Source: a virus. From it: a stretch of 64,000 nt of DNA. The stretch is from IMG/VR virus record IMGVR_UViG_3300025483_000873; one strand, given 5' to 3'. The number at the start of each line of letters is the position of its first letter. Position 1 is the first letter of the stretch. A program made the position numbers and the translations under genes. Below, piece after piece: positions 57,156 to 63,825 of this stretch. The notes beneath the pieces are model-generated. The model was not told where the DNA came from. It did not search any database and saw only the letters and a program-made list of their open reading frames with translations.

Positions 57156-57175
57156 AGTATGTGAGCACATGTGAT

Positions 57176-57688
57176 ATGAACATCTTTGTCACCAATGAAT
57201 ATCCAGCCGAGAGTGCCGTATGTTTACCTGACAAGCACATTGTCAAGATGCCGTTAGAATGCTGTCAAATGCTTGCTATCGTAGCATCAGACAAGTGGGG
57301 TCAGGGTTATGGTACTCTACCCAAGGCAGATGGCACACCATACAAAACAGAGAAGGGAGCATTCAGGAATCATCCTTGTACTATATGGGCAAGGGAAACT
57401 ATCGACAATGCGTGGTGGTTAATCAAGCATGGTATGAATCTATGTGATGAGTACACATTACGATACGATAAGCAACATTCGTGCTATAATACTTTAGTTC
57501 ATGCATATTATCTCTTTCCGAAGGGCAGTGTGAATAGTGTCACTCCATTCGTCAGAGCAATGCCTGACGAGTTCAAGTTTGACGATAGTATAGATACATT
57601 TACAGCATACAAAATGTATATTGCATCTAAACCGTGGGTAAAAGATAACTACCTACGTATGCCACAACGTAAACCACACTGGATCTAA
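57176..57688 (+). CDS. pyrimidine-dimer DNA glycosylase (DenV-like family) protein
   Basis: MNIF.......SA..L.DKH.VKM.LE..QML...HPCT.W...Y..RY.K.H. Confidence 0.75.
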   Translation: MNIFVTNEYPAESAVCLPDKHIVKMPLECCQMLAIVASDKWGQGYGTLPKADGTPYKTEKGAFRNHPCTIWARETIDNAWWLIKHGMNLCDEYTLRYDKQHSCYNTLVHAYYLFPKGSVNSVTPFVRAMPDEFKFDDSIDTFTAYKMYIASKPWVKDNYLRMPQRKPHWI

Positions 57689-58298: not shown

Positions 58299-59533
58299 CA
58301 CTGACTGATAGTGAGTTGTTCATGCTTACATGCTCACTACAGTATCTCGAACGCACCGCACAAATGCGTATTGAGGAAGAAATGGGTGCAATCGCGCCAC
58401 TATACAATAAACTGGCGTCATTGCGAGAAAATAGGACAGTTGATGATCTGTCCACTCCACGACACGGGGGCGATATGGATGCGCTATGATTACAAAGTAA
58501 TCGAGAGATGCGCCAATGACCACCAAGTTCAAGATCACTATCACGTCTGATAGTGGTAAATTCGTACAAGAGCACATTGTGTCGCGCAACGTAGCAGATA
58601 CAATGTGCTCCTACATCAACAACAATGGTACATTTAACGATGTCAAAACAGTCACAGTTGAACAAAATGTTTGAAGATGCTGACAATGAGGACAGTTTGG
58701 ACGCCGCATTTGTTGCAGCAATCGAAGAACGCGCTAAACTACTGGAGGTTACCGTAGATTATTACATGGAAGAATTCATGTAATACTACATAATCACGTA
58801 GACCTTACTTTTCTACTATGACTGACATAGAAACTTCAATGGTTAATGAGATGAAAGCTCTCATTAAAGATCAAAACGAAATGATTTGTGTCCAAGATGC
58901 TTACATTGAAGAGTTGAAACAGCAAATGTCCGACATGCACGATAGATACTATGACTGCTGATATTATACATGACCTGGAATCACATTTAGATAGTGGTCA
59001 TGTGTGGAAAGTTGAACTCGAACAACAATGGCAAGATGAACAAGCAGAACCACCTAATGGTGTGTATAATGTTGAAACATATCTCATCGCACCTGATAGA
59101 GATCTAGCACAGTACATTGCTCACAAATTGTACCCTGACACTGACTTCCTCATCATTAATGATCAACCAATCACCAGACAAAGTTACACCAAACGATGAA
59201 CCAATGTTACCTGTAGGCACCCAAGTAGAATTTGATGGGATGTTGGGATTTGTAAAATTTGTAGATCCAACGGGCGAATGTATGACTATTTGCACCAAGG
59301 TATTTCCCGATGAACCAGTAAGAAATGTATGTCGGGTGATATACAAGCACCAATTTGACGACGTAAAACTTGTAATCGGAAACAACACACACAACTGATT
59401 TATTATGAACGAAATTAACTTTGACAACTGGGCTGACGATCCTGCAATCCGTGATGCTATCCTACGAGAGGCATCGCAGGAGATCCTATGGGACAGTGAG
59501 GAAACTGTACCACCAGAACTGGACGACTTCTGA
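58283..59533 (+). other. run of tiny early ORFs (58283-58489, 58516-58674, 58640-58783, 58818-58961, 58951-59199, 59204-59398, 59405-59533)
   Basis: Contiguous + strand ORFs of 42-82 aa with little intergenic space. Confidence 0.6.
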
Positions 59534-59548
59534 CTACAGACTATACTG

Positions 59549-59809
59549 ATGCTATCAACACCAGAACAAATGCTGATCGACACTCAACTGCTCTCCGTCA
59601 TCGAGTCCCTTCAGGATGCCCTGCAAGTGGGCGAGAACGCTACTGACAGTGATTCCCCTGTAGACTCTGATGGAAACGCTCTGAAGCACTTTCTAGACGA
59701 CTCTCCTGCTCCTTCATACGCATATGCATATGGATGGACTTCTTCTAGCATCAAATCTGCGGTATTTTCACTCGAAACTATTCGTACTCAACTGACTAAT
59801 GCGACTTGA
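59549..59809 (+). CDS. hypothetical protein
   Basis: 86-aa ORF. Confidence 0.6.
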   Translation: MLSTPEQMLIDTQLLSVIESLQDALQVGENATDSDSPVDSDGNALKHFLDDSPAPSYAYAYGWTSSSIKSAVFSLETIRTQLTNAT

Positions 59810-60011
59810 TAGTAAAGCAAGAGTGTTAGGTAGTGTTGGTGTCATCACTGCGTATTTTTGTGTCTTGCACGTTAATATATTACTTGGGGTGATCATTAAC
59901 CTCATATCTGACACCATCAGTATTCCATACTTCATCCGAACAAAGTCTTGGGATGTAGTCATCGCATTATCATTCCTGTTAGTCATCAGTCTCACCAAAC
60001 TTGCATCATGA
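59799..60011 (+). CDS. small membrane protein
   Basis: Three hydrophobic segments. Confidence 0.65.
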   Translation: MRLDSKARVLGSVGVITAYFCVLHVNILLGVIINLISDTISIPYFIRTKSWDVVIALSFLLVISLTKLAS

Positions 60012-60211
60012 ACACATACACAAAAGAAGAAATCATCAATGCATTAGTTCACGAGTGGGACTATCTTTGTCACGATGATCCTGATCCTGATGATGATACA
60101 CCTGAAGAGTATCGTCTGAAGTTAGAATGTTATTCATTGGAAGATTTGATAGCAGAAACATCAACTGGTGAAGGTTACACACTCGATGAGTTCATGGAGA
60201 ACCACGGGTGA
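60008..60211 (+). CDS. hypothetical protein
   Basis: MNTYTKEEIINALVHEWDYLCHDD; ATGA coupling. Confidence 0.65.
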   Translation: MNTYTKEEIINALVHEWDYLCHDDPDPDDDTPEEYRLKLECYSLEDLIAETSTGEGYTLDEFMENHG

Positions 60212-60292
60212 CAGTTTAAGAACTGTATACCATTCCCCCATGGGGAGTGGTTTTCGTGTATATTAGTAGAGTCAAAGCAATCCGAGCAACCC
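60208..60292 (+). repeat. early promoter/stem-loop element (PeSL-like), copy 2
   Basis: ACAGTT-taag-AACTGT inverted repeat; CCATTCCCC/GGGGAGTGG hairpin; GTGTATATTAGTAGAGTCAAAG. Confidence 0.75.
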
Positions 60293-60475
60293 ATGACTAC
60301 CTTCGACTTTGAAACCGAGTATCACTGGGGTGCTCTCATGGTCAAACTTGTTCCTATGTTTTGCATGGATGTTTACAGAGCATCTGATGATGAGTTGGTA
60401 TGGGTCTATGATGTGAGCAAACCCAAAGATGGTTATCATGTGCCTGCTCGCAATCTTTCCACTTATTCTTATTGA
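60293..60475 (+). CDS. hypothetical protein
   Basis: First ORF after the repeat element. Confidence 0.65.
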   Translation: MTTFDFETEYHWGALMVKLVPMFCMDVYRASDDELVWVYDVSKPKDGYHVPARNLSTYSY

Positions 60476-60477
60476 TT

Positions 60478-61014
60478 ATGACTAGATTCAATGGCGGTAT
60501 TCAAAACGGCACTGTAGCTACTGATGCTCGTGCTCGTAAACTTGATGATCAATGCCAACAACTAAAAAGAGAAATCTTCAAGGAGTTGAAACATGCTTAT
60601 CCTCAACTGAAGATGCAAGCAAAACTGCGTCAGGATCAAATACCTGGTGGGATTGGTGCTTGTGCTCCTGATGGTGGTGCATGGTTCTTCAATGATGTGC
60701 TGATTGCAGTGTTTGAAGGTAAGAAACAGCAGAATCGAGGTAATGCTATCGAGCGTTGGTTTAAGAATAACTTTGTCTGCCGCACTATCAATCCTGATGT
60801 ATCTTATGTGACGTTCTGCACTGGTGAAGGTGCATACGATAACGGACAAATTGGCAAAGCACTTAACATTGCTCACCTGGATGGTTTCGGCCGGTACAAC
60901 CCTGGCAAGAATAGTGCATTTATGAGCATTGATTGCTTTAAGAAAGAATTTCTTCGTTATACTATGATCGAAGTGATTTGTGAACGTATCAACACTATGT
61001 TTCCTGACGGTTGA
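60478..61014 (+). CDS. EcoRI-like PD-(D/E)xK endonuclease
   Basis: APDGG...FEGKKQ...GNAIERWFKN parallels EcoRI PDGG...EAKHQG...GNAIERSHKN. Confidence 0.75.
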   Translation: MTRFNGGIQNGTVATDARARKLDDQCQQLKREIFKELKHAYPQLKMQAKLRQDQIPGGIGACAPDGGAWFFNDVLIAVFEGKKQQNRGNAIERWFKNNFVCRTINPDVSYVTFCTGEGAYDNGQIGKALNIAHLDGFGRYNPGKNSAFMSIDCFKKEFLRYTMIEVICERINTMFPDG

Positions 61015-61039
61015 CAACTAATCAAACTAGTTGTATAAT
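61011..61039 (+). promoter_or_regulatory. consensus sigma70 promoter containing an inverted repeat
   Basis: TTGACA-17 bp-TATAAT; ACAACTA (61014-61020) / TAGTTGT (61028-61034). Confidence 0.85.
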
Positions 61040-61118
61040 TAAAACACGTTGACTATAACACCCCAAGGCATTCGTGTCAGGTCAACGACAAAAAATAAAG
61101 GGGATTTTGGTAAAATCT

Positions 61119-62153
61119 ATGTACGATTCAAGTAAGGACAATCTCATTCCTTTAACTGAGATAGCAGACAATCTTGGTATCAAAGTCAGAAAGCATGACT
61201 TTGATGACTGGATTGAAGAAACTTTAACACCTGATTGTGTTATCGAAGATGGCACAAGGGGTTATCTTTGTGTGTATGGAATCAAAGTCAAATATCTTTA
61301 CTCTGATAGAGAGTATCAGAGATTGATGAATGGATCCATGATTAAGAAAGCAGGAAAGTTTGATGGTAGATTGTGCCGCCCTTTGTTTGTTTTTAGACGA
61401 CCTGATGGTAAATTTGCTGTTGCAGATGGTCAACATACAGGATCCATTGGTTATCTTTACACAAATCAGGGTAGTGAGTTAGTATTACCTTGCCAAGTTA
61501 TTTTTCATCCTGAGGATAGAAATCTAGAAGACTGTGTTGCCTTTGAAGCAAAGTTTTTTGAAGACCTTAACAAGAATCGCACCAACGTTGGTGCTATCGA
61601 AACTTTGCGATCTGGCATTGCTTACGGTAATAAGGAGTCTATGGAAAAGGAGCAGAAACTTGTTACTATGGGAGTGCATATTGAACAGATTGGTGATACT
61701 AGTGGATATGAAGTTTCTGGTCTTACTCGTATTCTTGAGGGATATGATGTTGGTGATAACTCTAAGTATGCAAAGAAGGCAATTGATACTTATGCCGACC
61801 TGATTGAGGATCAAAATTCACCTAACTGGTCAGAATCTCCTCTGTTGGGATCTCTCGTTGCAGGACTTGCGCGGGTTTGGTATCTCAGAGACAACCTGGG
61901 TAAAGGTGACAAAGGTTATGTTGTTCACAAGTATTTGACTGAACGACTGAAGAAAACCTCTCCAAAGATTCTAACAGAGGGTACATCTGGAAACTCGCAA
62001 TCACACTTGATTGCTGTTAGAATCATCACTAAAATCAATACTCTTATTGAAGAAGATGTGTTGACAAAGAGAGATGGAACTCCTCTGAAACATCAAATTT
62101 CTGAGGGAGAACTTAAGGACTCTGATATTACTGACCCAACAAAGACTAAATGA
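61119..62153 (+). CDS. ParB-like / DGQH-motif protein
   Basis: PLFVFRRPDGKFAVADGQHT...EAKFF..LN. Confidence 0.7.
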   Translation: MYDSSKDNLIPLTEIADNLGIKVRKHDFDDWIEETLTPDCVIEDGTRGYLCVYGIKVKYLYSDREYQRLMNGSMIKKAGKFDGRLCRPLFVFRRPDGKFAVADGQHTGSIGYLYTNQGSELVLPCQVIFHPEDRNLEDCVAFEAKFFEDLNKNRTNVGAIETLRSGIAYGNKESMEKEQKLVTMGVHIEQIGDTSGYEVSGLTRILEGYDVGDNSKYAKKAIDTYADLIEDQNSPNWSESPLLGSLVAGLARVWYLRDNLGKGDKGYVVHKYLTERLKKTSPKILTEGTSGNSQSHLIAVRIITKINTLIEEDVLTKRDGTPLKHQISEGELKDSDITDPTKTK

Positions 62154-63004
62154 AACCTCTCTTTATATGGGCAGGTGGTAAAACAAAGGTGCTAAAACAT
62201 TATGCACCTTTTATGCCATCATCCTTTGAAACTTACTACGAACCATTCTTTGGTGGTGGTGCTATGTTTGTCCATGTGATGAACAGATACCGACCAAAGA
62301 ATGCTGTGATCAATGACATCAACCCCAGCGTGATGAACATTTATCGTAGCATTCGTGATGACTACGATGCATTCACCTCACGTCTAGATGCACTTGAAGC
62401 AGTATATCTTCCCAAGACCAAGGAAGATAGGAAGAAGTATTACATGGATGTGAGGCATCAACATGCCTATGATTATGAGAGTTGGGATACAACATATGAG
62501 GCAGCAACATTATACTTCTTGATGAAGACTGGGTTCAATGGTATATGGCAGATCAACAAGAATACCAACGGTAGGTACGGAACTCCTGCTGGATTGCTGA
62601 ACCAGAAGGATAAAGTATATGATCGTGATGTGCTCAACTGGTGGCATAATACTCTTCAAGTTGTTGATATCAAGACTGGTGATTGGAAGACTGTAGTTGA
62701 TACTGATCCTAATGGTTTCTTCTTCTTTGATCCACCCTATCGTGATAGTTTTGCTGATTATGGCAATGCATTTGGTGAGGATGCCCTATTGGACCTGATC
62801 GACTTTGCCGATGCACAAAAAAGAGTTTTTGTTGCCAACCGTGCTGATGATGACTGGTTTGAGGGTAAATCAAAGTCTTTATCAGTTCATTACTTCAACA
62901 TAACATACACTGCGGGTCGTAGAAAGAAAACAGAGGACGGATATGCTGCTAAAAAAGCAAGAGAAATCCTACTACACAAGACAGACCGTGTGACACTAGT
63001 CTAA
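62150..63004 (+). CDS. dam: Dam-family N6-adenine DNA methyltransferase
   Basis: WAGGK, YYEPFFGGGA, INDIN, GFNG, FFDPPY. Confidence 0.93.
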   Translation: MKPLFIWAGGKTKVLKHYAPFMPSSFETYYEPFFGGGAMFVHVMNRYRPKNAVINDINPSVMNIYRSIRDDYDAFTSRLDALEAVYLPKTKEDRKKYYMDVRHQHAYDYESWDTTYEAATLYFLMKTGFNGIWQINKNTNGRYGTPAGLLNQKDKVYDRDVLNWWHNTLQVVDIKTGDWKTVVDTDPNGFFFFDPPYRDSFADYGNAFGEDALLDLIDFADAQKRVFVANRADDDWFEGKSKSLSVHYFNITYTAGRRKKTEDGYAAKKAREILLHKTDRVTLV

Positions 63005-63071
63005 ACTGTCCACTATTGTGGCACAGCACCCCAAAACCGTGTATTATAAGAGAGTCAAAGGAACCACACCA
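62988..63071 (+). repeat. early promoter/stem-loop element (PeSL-like), copy 3
   Basis: GTGTGACAC...AAACTGTCCAC; GTGTATTATAAGAGAGTCAAAG nearly matches copy 2. Confidence 0.75.
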
Positions 63072-63236
63072 ATGCTCGTCTCTGAATACTACAAGGTCAG
63101 TGCTGTCACTCCTGAAGATGGTGAAGTATCTTATGAGACTCTTGATCAGCAGTTCGCACGTAGCCTACATTCTGAATTGCTCTGCCGTCAACTGAATAAG
63201 GACGGTACTCATAGTGTCACAGTCAGTAAGGGCTAA
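63072..63236 (+). CDS. hypothetical protein
   Basis: MLVSEYYKVSAVTPEDGEV... Confidence 0.6.
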   Translation: MLVSEYYKVSAVTPEDGEVSYETLDQQFARSLHSELLCRQLNKDGTHSVTVSKG

Positions 63237-63278
63237 CGCTCTCCATACGCTATACTATATTCATCAGCAAGACACCCC

Positions 63279-63530
63279 ATGACAGTCACCGCAGTCAAGC
63301 ACTCCTTCTACAAGGTTGAGATCGACACCATCGATGCTCCCCAGCAACCGATCATCTATTTCCGCAAGTGTGGCAAGTGTACCACGGCAAAGGGCATGGA
63401 TCGTCAGCACAATCGTATGGTGAGTGAGACTATTGAGCAGTGGCGTCCATTCTCACATCAGATCCGTCGCTACACCATCTCTCGTGTGCCAGCTGACGTA
63501 GTGGTCGGTGGTGAGATCCGCAACGCCTAA
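63279..63530 (+). CDS. hypothetical protein
   Basis: 83 aa; own TATACT element. Confidence 0.7.
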   Translation: MTVTAVKHSFYKVEIDTIDAPQQPIIYFRKCGKCTTAKGMDRQHNRMVSETIEQWRPFSHQIRRYTISRVPADVVVGGEIRNA

Positions 63531-63570
63531 TCTGCCCTATACTAAACACATCAGCAACCAACCCACTCAA

Positions 63571-63825
63571 ATGCAACTCACCACACTCGTCACCACAGTT
63601 GATTTCTTCCCTGAGGCATTCATCGCTGAAGAGTCTGGCACTGTTGTCAAGCGTTTCCAGAAGCGTGTCACCTTCAACTCCAACGGTCTCAAGTCTTATA
63701 GCACTGTCACAGCACTCACAGCACGTCACGAGTGGTCTGAGCGTATCGCTAACGGTGCTACCGTCACTGGTTACAACGTAGATCAAATGCCTCGCTCCGA
63801 GTATGCTCCAATGGCAGTAGGTTGA
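63571..63825 (+). CDS. hypothetical protein
   Basis: MQLTTLVTTVDFFPEAFIAE...; own TATACT element. Confidence 0.7.
   Translation: MQLTTLVTTVDFFPEAFIAEESGTVVKRFQKRVTFNSNGLKSYSTVTALTARHEWSERIANGATVTGYNVDQMPRSEYAPMAVG

Follow-up and report, generated by a model that had tools for sequence, protein, structure and literature searches.

A probable restriction-modification pair with an exchangeable ParB-like gene in a T4-like marine cyanophage

The locus described here lies in a 64,000-nucleotide stretch of viral DNA (the window) and probably encodes a phage-borne type II restriction-modification (R-M) pair, accompanied by an optional ParB-like accessory. The source virus is a T4-like marine cyanomyovirus, and its nearest isolate is S-RIM2, at about 83% nucleotide identity. 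The genes of the pair, an EcoRI-like nuclease and a D12/Dam-family methylase, are adjacent, co-oriented and co-inherited. No earlier description of a cyanophage R-M pair was found in the literature.

Layout of the locus

Four genes lie on the plus strand where a sequence-only reading of the same DNA had placed them. The first, orf60 (60293..60475, phrog_12800), encodes a small protein and its stop codon adjoins the nuclease start; homologues of orf60 are found 5' of the nuclease in 10 related loci. The nuclease gene (60478..61014, phrog_2400) occupies an ORF of 60472-61014, and translation from ATG 60478 gives 178 aa, the identical form of which is metagenomic protein P0001. The ParB-like gene (61119..62153, phrog_2558) follows. 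Its longest ORF, 61074-62153, opens at GTG 61074; because the PHROG and homologue alignments open at residue 16, the real start is likely ATG 61119, giving 344 aa. The methylase gene (62150..63004, 284 aa) overlaps the ParB-like stop codon at its start, confirming the ATGA coupling proposed earlier. Downstream of the second flanking repeat lies orf72 (63018/63072-63236).

Compact EcoRI-like nuclease

The nuclease has a compact PD-(D/E)XK fold of the EcoRI type, and both fold and motifs agree with its earlier identification as EcoRI-like. EcoRI is the top, outlying structural match (Foldseek E 2e-5), and the VIA alignment to it covers 155 aa with Z 12.8, 3.0 A rmsd and 18% identity; the next tier of matches stands at about Z 8, with MunI at Z 7.5. 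The PDGG, E-G-K and GNAIER motifs named in the sequence-only reading are present, at P66-D67, E82-G83-K84 and G90-NAIER95 in the numbering of the 180-aa ORF, and are invariant in nuclease alignments. In an alignment of 40 sequences with identities as low as 27%, P66, D67, G68, G69, E82, K84, Q86, G90, N91, A92, I93 and R95 are invariant and E94 is nearly so. The family is largely viral and comprises 269 clusters; of the 150 cluster representatives listed among these 269, most contain the motif string. In EcoRI, residues A142, N141 and R145 read AATT (PMC4081073). The invariance of this base-reading segment implies that the phage nuclease would recognise a specific sequence.

The window nuclease has no match to the Pfam EcoRI family (PF02963); 6 of 29 relatives gave weak matches, with a best E of 0.035, and PF02963 is among the precomputed tags of one homologue cluster. 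Comparison with PDB chains by single sequence, profile and motif segment returned nothing relevant, and no match was obtained in PADLOC or NCBIfam. In the ESM Atlas, viral MunI-family clusters lie near the nuclease family, which serves as a lead only. When 185,579 species genomes were scanned for the GNAIERW pattern, one match came up, on a short MAG contig, so no link could be made from the family to MluCI or another characterised AATT enzyme. The record of phage S-CREM2 names a homologue of the nuclease 'EcoRI', and the S-CREM2 paper is silent on it.

Dam-type methylase with altered site-reading residues

The methylase matches TIGR00571 (136.9 bits against a cut-off of 114.85) and PF02086, carries the motifs EPFFGGGA and FFFFDPPY, with their FGGG and DPPY cores, and has DpnM as its best solved relative (E 1.6e-26). 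Its description as a Dam methylase stands as to family and to D12 class, that of an N6-adenine DNA methylase; the GATC-reading residues R124 and K9 are missing. Residues Y119, N120, L122 and P134 of E. coli Dam (EcoDam) are retained as F, N, I and P, whereas R124 is changed to Q, K9 to I and R137/Y138 to L/L. In the window protein, Q134 stands at the R124 position and I6 at that of K9, and all 3 contacts to the outer G:C pairs are altered. The same pattern, with the central A-T readers kept and the G:C readers altered, is found in all methylases linked to the nuclease: Q at the R124 position is invariant (61/61), and the K9 position holds I, M or V. The canonical Dam of phage S-IOM18 retains K and R. 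In Dam, R124 reads the guanine of the fourth base pair, and K9 and Y138 read the first (PMC4417163). Because the G:C-reading residues R124 and K9 are changed, the linked methylases are probably not GATC enzymes. The methylase belongs to a separate clade that travels with the EcoRI-like nuclease.

Pairing of nuclease and methylase

Of 75 informative IMG/VR loci, 65 have a D12/Dam-family methylase downstream of the nuclease, usually abutting it. It lies directly after the nuclease in 46 loci, after a gap of less than 300 nt in 4 and behind an insert in 15, and none is nearby in 10. The pairing is kept as nuclease identity falls from 81% to 34%, and the stop codon often overlaps the start codon of the next gene; it also holds for nucleases of just 34-47% identity. 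Among isolates, 64 records contain the methylase clade (E<1e-40), and every one of them is among the 65 that bear the nuclease. In one complete IMG/VR genome both genes are present, 18 kb apart. Ten loci with an intact nuclease have no D12 methylase within 1-5 kb, and 2 incomplete contigs of 74-112 kb with the nuclease have none anywhere on them. Co-occurrence of all 3 genes had been proposed as a check of the earlier reading; the nuclease and methylase do stay paired, whereas the ParB-like gene varies independently.

For the recognition site of the pair, AATT is put forward purely by residue analogy: it may be the site of the methylase, matching the AATT-reading motif of the nuclease. Sites for GAATTC (8) and GATC (303, observed/expected 0.76) are present in the 64-kb window, as had been noted, and there are 255 AATT sites (observed/expected 0.62). 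Because many palindromes are depleted in the genome, such counts have no diagnostic value, and the depletion of AATT does not stand out among palindromes.

Flanking repeats

The region begins with a terminator-like hairpin and T-run (60229..60251, plus strand; 10-pair stem with 6 GC pairs), which ends the upstream transcription unit. Repeat copy A (GTGTATATTA..AGAGTCAAAG; 60252..60281, plus strand; 41 of 48.8 bits) follows just 5' of orf60, and copy B (63035..63064, plus strand; 42 bits) lies 5' of orf72. Although a first test, by local alignment against shuffles, did not beat the shuffles, it was superseded by a count of the 22-nt core, which occurs exactly twice in 64 kb against 0.01 expected, and by recurrence in relatives. 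The element recurs 5' of genes in related phages, including about 40 nt 5' of orf60 or the nuclease in L004-L006, L009, L011, L012 and L017-L019, and in relatives, too, the terminator-like hairpin precedes it. The flanking repeat is a general intergenic terminator-plus-leader element. A mobile cassette bounded by these repeats had been suggested; the repeats are real, but they are not the cassette ends. The window and related locus L004 are 98-99% identical over the two repeat copies, and the breakpoints fall elsewhere, one within the 3' half of the nuclease gene and one where the ParB-like gene meets Dam.

Promoter, leader and exchangeable insert

The ParB-like gene is preceded by a predicted sigma-70 promoter of full consensus (61011..61039, plus strand; TTGACA-17-TATAAT, 12/12), which agrees with the earlier view that it is separately promoted. 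The nuclease stop codon falls inside the -35 box, and a partial palindrome, ACAACTA/TAGTTGT, lies within the spacer. The promoter is kept ahead of every inserted gene class; the palindrome is just partly kept. An operator role for the palindrome was considered and rejected, as it is inconsistent among loci with the same ParB-like allele group. Between promoter and ParB-like start lies a conserved leader hairpin (61047..61087, plus strand) with outer stem CGUUGAC/GUCAACG, an inner 4-bp stem and a UUCG/UCCG loop; across 7 sequences, 3 of its 12 pairs show compensatory changes. An Rfam search of 59500-63600 gave no matches.

Near-identical phages have, replace or lack the insert, and 3 unrelated gene classes, often with a 61-aa ORF, are found behind the one conserved promoter. 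Such a pattern would suit a selfish or arms-race cargo, in which the ParB-like gene and the alternative inserts form a promoter-bearing moron or homing-like cassette that lands between nuclease and methylase and serves some purpose other than R-M, such as anti-defence. The shape of the breakpoints also fits: the right one is abrupt and falls where Dam begins, and along the 3' half of the nuclease gene divergence climbs gradually, a profile like that of co-conversion tracts. On the other hand, no recognisable homing-endonuclease domain was found, and relatives of the ParB-like gene lie upstream of methylases of several other classes elsewhere, a recurrence that random landing would not predict. 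The cargo explanation is considered unlikely.

ParB-like gene and its relation to the pair

The middle gene had been called ParB-like, and structure matching bears this out. The top Foldseek matches are all ParB, Noc, KorB or Srx (ParB/Noc probabilities 0.97-0.98, E about 0.01), and VIA over residues 47-155 gives modest values for PadC (Z 7.9), Srx (Z 7.4) and Atu1540 (Z 7.0); the helical C-terminal domain has no clear structural match. The motif RRPDGKFAVADGQHT (DGQHT) is present. The window protein is DUF6551-like: it scores 21.4 bits against DUF6551 (PF20188), below the cut-off of 26.8, which a homologue 42% identical to it (L016) passes with 35.7 bits, and both belong to PHROG 2558. No DndB or DGQHR family match was found in Pfam, NCBIfam or PADLOC, with no match of any kind in the latter 2, and the motif ends in T, not R.

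An integrated three-component system, as proposed in the sequence-only reading, would have the ParB-like protein sense NTP or DNA and gate the nuclease or methylase, with loci lacking it being degenerate or using a factor encoded elsewhere. Several features speak for this. Besides the overlap of the ParB-like stop with the Dam start, the gene is found inside 2 R-M-like modules that are unrelated to each other. One combines the EcoRI-like nuclease and Q-type Dam; the other, in S-IOM18, S-M1 and L113, is a parallel trio of a candidate MvaI/BcnI-like nuclease (phrog_15364), ParB-like gene and canonical Dam. The second insert class (phrog_5778) has a comparable motif, GGNHT, in the same place; this likeness is confined to G-[GQN]-H-T, and profile-profile comparison with the DUF6551-like class was not significant (probability 0.4%). 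Binding of CTP or ATP is known for other phage DUF6551 proteins and requires the arginine of Box II, the P-motif (PMC12704722). That position is T in the window and T or E in relatives (DGQH-T/E), which makes the suggested NTP gating doubtful.

Further evidence against the three-component scheme comes from distribution. The ParB-like gene sits between nuclease and methylase in just 9 of 65 paired loci, is absent from the 46+4 of 65 in which the 2 genes lie together, and is missing from S-BM1 and at least 5 S-RIM2 isolates, otherwise near-identical viable phages; in other S-RIM2 isolates it is replaced. Its alleles are exchanged independently of nuclease and methylase: in phages with flanks of 95-100% identity the gene itself can share only 35%, and nearly the same Dam (98% aa identity) adjoins alleles this far apart. 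A predicted ParB-like-Dam complex scored 0.00, a value counting neither for nor against binding. Many ParB-like relatives adjoin non-DNA genes, for example those for a 2OG oxygenase or peptide deformylase. An obligatory third part is at odds with these distributions, and the three-component scheme is quite improbable. The gene does tend to adjoin methylases. It tracks methylases, not nucleases, and the downstream neighbour of one distant relative (L131) is a ParB_N and MT-A70 fusion.

Very improbable, lastly, is that a low-specificity phage DNA-processing or host-takeover nuclease and an orphan anti-restriction Dam are merely neighbours, since, although T4-type phages encode host-DNA nucleases, orphan Dam is common in cyanophages (annotation T4-GC_161 in S-BM1) and some loci have the nuclease alone, adjacency survives down to the most distant nucleases, often with overlapping codons, the changed-specificity methylase subtype occurs among isolates just with the nuclease, and the base-reading GNAIER is invariant.

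Proposed mode of action and significance

In the preferred reading of an R-M pair, a minimal EcoRI/MunI-type nuclease, keeping the catalytic PD...ExK and GNAIER head without the DNA-wrapping arms of EcoRI, would be transcribed together with the D12-class N6-adenine methylase, whose gene it abuts or overlaps in most relatives. Both enzymes would share a site that contains AATT and, in the simplest case, consists of these four bases. Phage DNA would arrive methylated and the methylation would then be maintained; unmethylated DNA, from the host chromosome or a co-infecting phage, would be cut into small pieces, with its nucleotides recycled or competitors excluded. The ParB-like gene would stand outside this core, as one of at least 3 alternative genes arriving behind the same consensus sigma-70 promoter. 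We tentatively suggest that its product could be a DNA-bound methylation helper, its cassette also giving the methylase its own strong early promoter. Against such a helper stand the missing Box II arginine and the swap of alleles beside a near-constant Dam, which argues against a specific protein-protein interface. A wider proposal, made with little confidence, is that DUF6551 ParB-fold proteins may be a fast-evolving, exchangeable third component of viral R-M modules, a DNA-loading or self/non-self factor directing the neighbouring methylase, and so the restriction outcome, onto phage DNA. They would have been recruited independently by at least 2 cyanophage R-M types, one joining the EcoRI-like nuclease to a methylase probably for AATT, the other the MutH/MvaI-like candidate nuclease to a GATC Dam.

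T4 marks its own DNA by modified cytosine. If the preferred reading is true, a phage R-M pair with a 4-bp site would provide a simple self/host DNA distinction for the T4-like cyanophage lineages that carry it, and also a weapon against co-infecting phages. The nuclease family, at about 65% of EcoRI length, would be a naturally minimised EcoRI, suited to asking with how small a scaffold AATT can be recognised, and might supply a new small restriction enzyme. The methylase is a naturally occurring test case for an Arg-to-Gln switch at the key guanine contact of Dam. The S-RIM2 isolates, with the ParB-like gene, another insert or nothing at one site, form a near-isogenic series for the role of methylase-adjoining phage ParB-fold proteins, a question remaining after the 2025 fold survey.

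Comparison with known systems

The nuclease shares with EcoRI, RsrI and MunI (PF02963, PF11407) the alpha-class PD-(D/E)XK fold, at the Z scores given above, and with the EcoRI family the motif order PDGG, E-x-K-x-Q and GNAIER-x-x-KN, of which the GNAIER segment is the AATT reader in EcoRI. Unlike EcoRI (277 aa), it has a much shorter C-terminal part and just 6 residues between the catalytic Lys and GNAIER; what is absent corresponds to the EcoRI inner arm (EcoRI numbering). The family also differs in lying below Pfam thresholds, in being essentially viral or metagenomic and in having a D12/alpha-class partner methylase instead of the EcoRI-methylase type. Like the GATC enzymes Dam, DpnM and T4 Dam (TIGR00571), the methylase has FxGxG, DPPY, the beta-hairpin, the intercalating aromatic and the N, L/I and P contacts to the central pairs. 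It is unlike them in a 2-residue insertion in the hairpin and in the substitutions at R124, K9 and R137/Y138.

Viral R-M systems with 4-bp m6A sites are carried by chlorovirus PBCV-1 (PMC7248222). R.CviAI/M.CviAI (GATC) and R.CviAII/M.CviAII (CATG) resemble the proposed pair in giving a lytic virus a complete system (PMC7248222); the bacterial host, the T4-like phage and the nuclease family are different. With phage ParB-CTPase fold proteins and ParB-methylase fusions (PMC12704722), the ParB-like protein shares the ParB/Srx N-terminal fold, the DGQH motif and methylase linkage, but it is encoded by a separate gene, has T or E for the Box II arginine, and is optional and hypervariable. The DGQH motif is also shared with DndB/DGQHR regulators, whereas a DndB HMM match is lacking. 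The PeSL cassettes of T4, reportedly described by Arbiol et al. in 2010, are said to be promoter-early stem-loops flanking genes of hyperplastic regions. The flanking repeat differs from them in having no sigma-70 match and no recombination junction seen at its copies; it is similar in joining a stem-loop to a conserved downstream leader and in recurring between early-region genes in related phages.

Locus Organization and Leader RNA

The phage of this window is a T4-like cyanomyovirus of the Kyanoviridae. Synechococcus phage S-RIM2 aligns with 71% of the 2.8-kb region at ~83% nucleotide identity and has the same gene order: nuclease, ParB-like gene, Dam, and then helicase. The locus comprises two transcription units. 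A terminator-like hairpin (60229-60251) is followed by the first copy of a conserved element (60252-60281), by orf60 (60293-60475), whose stop codon abuts the nuclease start, and by the nuclease gene (ATG 60478 to 61014, 178 aa). A sigma-70 promoter with a 12/12 match (61011-61039), whose -35 box holds the nuclease stop codon, is separated by a leader of ~80 nt from the ParB-like gene (stop at 62153). The methylase gene (62150-63004) shares an ATGA overlap with that stop, and the conserved element is found again at 63035-63064, ahead of the next small gene. A DenV-type pyrimidine-dimer glycosylase (57161-57688; PF03013, E 5e-16) is encoded 3 kb upstream; its S-CREM2 homologue sits between nuclease and methylase.

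The ParB-like leader RNA contains a conserved hairpin (61047-61087), the inner stem of which is capped by UUCG/UCCG and includes 3 compensatory pairs. Homologous hairpins were found in six related loci (L001, L008, L021, L027, L048, L089). The CCCC run in the loop could pair with the downstream AAAGGGG Shine-Dalgarno-like run. Because the GTG start annotated in S-RIM2 falls inside this hairpin, translation probably begins at the downstream ATG (61119).

Flanking Repeats

The sequence-only reading took the repeats as the boundaries of a three-gene cassette, and this is contradicted by relatives. In the 64-kb window the 22-nt repeat core occurs in exactly two copies, both scoring 41-42 of 48.8 bits with the PWM. 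In related phages, the core and its preceding hairpin recur upstream of many small genes, with five copies in 10 kb of L009 and others in L007, L018, and L043. Such recurrence argues for punctuation of transcription units, not for a cassette end. The ~75-nt element consists of a terminator-like hairpin, GTGTATATTA, AGAGTCAAAGGAA, and a start codon, and no sigma-70 -35 match was found in it. It punctuates early-region genes of this phage clade, is reminiscent of the PeSL cassettes of T4, and may be a promoter specific to the phage or a shuffling cassette of the PeSL type.

A Minimal EcoRI-Fold Nuclease

The nuclease falls in PHROG 2400, annotated 'unknown'; it matched nothing in Pfam, and sequence search of the PDB found nothing. 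An AlphaFold model (29 homologues in the alignment, pLDDT 81) retrieved five EcoRI entries by Foldseek at E 2e-5. With VIA, the model matched EcoRI at Z 12.8 over 155 residues (3.0 A), followed by a tier near Z 8, with MunI at Z 7.5. As judged from the model, EcoRI is the clear best structural match.

The nuclease motifs picked out earlier from the sequence proved real and invariant: P66-D67-G-G, E82-G-K84-K-Q, and G90-N-A-I-E-R95-W-x-K-N (180-aa ORF numbering). An exhaustive profile search gave 269 clusters at 50% identity, mostly of 160-200 aa, and the same motif string is kept in most of the 150 listed. In EcoRI, residues A142, N141, and R145 of the GNAIER segment read the inner AATT (PMC4081073). 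PDB titles of the E144D and R145K mutants agree with this residue numbering. The spacing from the catalytic Lys to GNAIER is only six residues in the phage protein, so that a segment is missing, which we take to be the EcoRI inner arm; the protein amounts to a minimal EcoRI. Most of its family is viral. Its Atlas neighbours are viral, with MunI-family clusters among them (a lead only), and among 185,579 species genomes scanned for the motif pattern, one short MAG contig was confirmed.

Conserved Pairing of Nuclease and Methylase

A total of 77 IMG/VR loci encoding a nuclease relative were fetched, 75 of them informative. In 46 of the 75, the start of a D12 methylase is only a few bases from the nuclease stop, and the two often overlap; the gap is ~280 nt in 4, the ParB-like gene intervenes in 9, and another insert of 0.9-1.4 kb in 6. 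In the other 10, no D12 methylase was found within 1-5 kb. Adjacency persists at nuclease identities from 81% down to 34%. Among isolate genomes, 65 records carry the nuclease, with S-RIM2 isolates, S-BM1, and S-CREM2 among the matches listed, and 64 records, all S-RIM2 or S-BM1, carry the window-type methylase clade (E<1e-40). In S-CREM2 the nuclease is annotated 'EcoRI' and a divergent methylase lies two genes away. In a complete 190-kb IMG/VR genome (G004), the nuclease is 18 kb from a Dam-family methylase with Q at the EcoDam R124 position (Q-type Dam). This adjacency and co-occurrence in both IMG/VR loci and isolates point to a restriction-modification pair, of which such gene pairing is the signature.

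Intact nuclease homologues lack an adjacent methylase in L041-L045 and L049-L053; that of L043 adjoins a 2OG-Fe(II) oxygenase. G004 (L051, L082, L083) has, next to a clamp-loader-like gene, a further D12 methylase distinct from the first. In S-CREM2, the gene immediately upstream of the nuclease homologue encodes an 869-aa virion protein, gp12 (L002:1296-3905); its annotation as 'CRISPR-associated endonuclease Cas9/Csn1' looks doubtful.

Methylase and Its Possible Recognition Site

The methylase passes TIGR00571 and PF02086, and its best solved relative is DpnM. In EcoDam, R124 reads the guanine of the fourth base pair, with discrimination there lost in R124A, and K9 and Y138 read the first base pair (PMC4417163). 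Alignment to E. coli Dam from MG1655 showed that the central-pair apparatus is retained (Y119 to F, N120, L122 to I, P134), with the changes R124 to Q, K9 to I, and R137/Y138 to L/L, and a hairpin two residues longer. In each of the 61 nuclease-linked methylases, R124 is replaced by Q, and the K9 position is occupied by I, M, or V and only rarely by K; the S-IOM18 canonical Dam retains both K and R. As judged from these residues, the window's Dam-family enzyme is probably not GATC-specific. Replacement of a guanine-reading Arg by Gln is a classic route to adenine reading, and AATT has adenine at exactly the position read by R124. From this Gln and the AATT-reading head of the nuclease, we would give AATT, or a site containing it, about an even chance of being the recognition sequence. 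Site counts in the window are not decisive for AATT.

The Swappable Middle Gene

The ParB-like protein (PHROG 2558) falls slightly short of the DUF6551 threshold, which a homologue 42% identical to it exceeds. Its model (pLDDT 85) contains a ParB/Srx N-domain, the top Foldseek matches all being ParB, Noc, KorB, or Srx (VIA Z 7-8 for residues 47-155); the helical C-domain had no clear structural match by Foldseek or VIA. Other phage DUF6551 proteins bind CTP or ATP, and the ParB-fold proteins tested require the Box II arginine to bind NTP (PMC12704722). Here this arginine is replaced by T or E.

The gene is optional: most paired loci lack it, as do S-BM1 and the S-RIM2 isolates of 174.2 kb, and in four S-RIM2 isolates it is replaced by an unrelated 308-aa gene (PHROG 5778). 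Within S-RIM2, the three natural states are exemplified by HQ317290 (ParB-like gene), KX349229 (PHROG 5778 insert), and KX349240 (no insert). Inserts of this class (303-324 aa) occupy the same nuclease-methylase junction in L006 (3228-4163), L010, L013, L014, L039, and KX349229 (40471-41397, equal to L143:972-1898). Their YKIIGGNHTSEI motif resembles the DGQHT segment of the ParB-like protein, but profile comparison of the two was not significant. L015 carries a third insert class, PHROG 33124. All insert classes are preceded by one promoter, TTGACAACTGA...TATAAT, which is often carried by the 3' end of a 61-aa ORF absent from the window. This ORF (MHQTVLRINKKSW...VWHE; L004:5555-5740), conserved in many loci, separates the nuclease from the inserted gene, and its terminal V-D-N-stop codons constitute the -35 box. 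It also occurs in L006, L013-L016, L021, and L048, and is missing in S-RIM2 as well.

Between L004 and the window, both flanks are 95-100% identical, whereas the ParB-like alleles share 35%. Over the 3' half of the nuclease gene (window 60400-61005), nucleotide identity declines gradually from ~95% to 59%, then recovers sharply to 100% where Dam starts. Such an asymmetric pattern resembles the outcome of recombination or co-conversion around a swapped cassette.

A profile search covering 61 loci showed that the ParB-like gene tracks with methylases. A Q-type Dam follows close relatives in 9 loci, a canonical Dam follows in 6 (likewise in S-IOM18 and S-M1), and a small methylase-like protein with weak Pfam evidence in 5; MT-A70 methylases follow two distant relatives, one being fused to ParB_N. 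The remaining relatives have unrelated genes downstream. S-IOM18 (L084:2806-5414), S-M1 (L085), and L113 (2667-5171) combine the ParB-like gene and a canonical Dam (K9 and R124 kept) with a PHROG 15364 protein of 199-210 aa in the same early-region neighbourhood. This candidate nuclease contains the motif D..GELK and gave two weak, independent MvaI/BcnI matches (E 0.04 and 0.088). The isolates have the order ParB-Dam-nuclease, L113 the order nuclease-ParB-Dam. This second trio may be another restriction-modification type sharing the ParB-like accessory gene, and may be a MutH/Sau3AI-like GATC system.

Proposed Function and Known Systems

The pairing is conserved, the specificity residues are changed, and the middle gene is swappable. 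It can be proposed that the phage would mark its own DNA at AATT-type sites and that the nuclease would cut host or competitor DNA lacking the mark. From the middle cassette, the methylase would gain a strong early promoter; this cassette would also encode a DNA-binding ParB-fold factor, which probably assists methylation or plays an arms-race role. A literature search found no description of this nuclease-methylase pair in cyanophages. Virus-encoded restriction-modification systems with 4-bp m6A specificity are known from the chloroviruses (PMC7248222).
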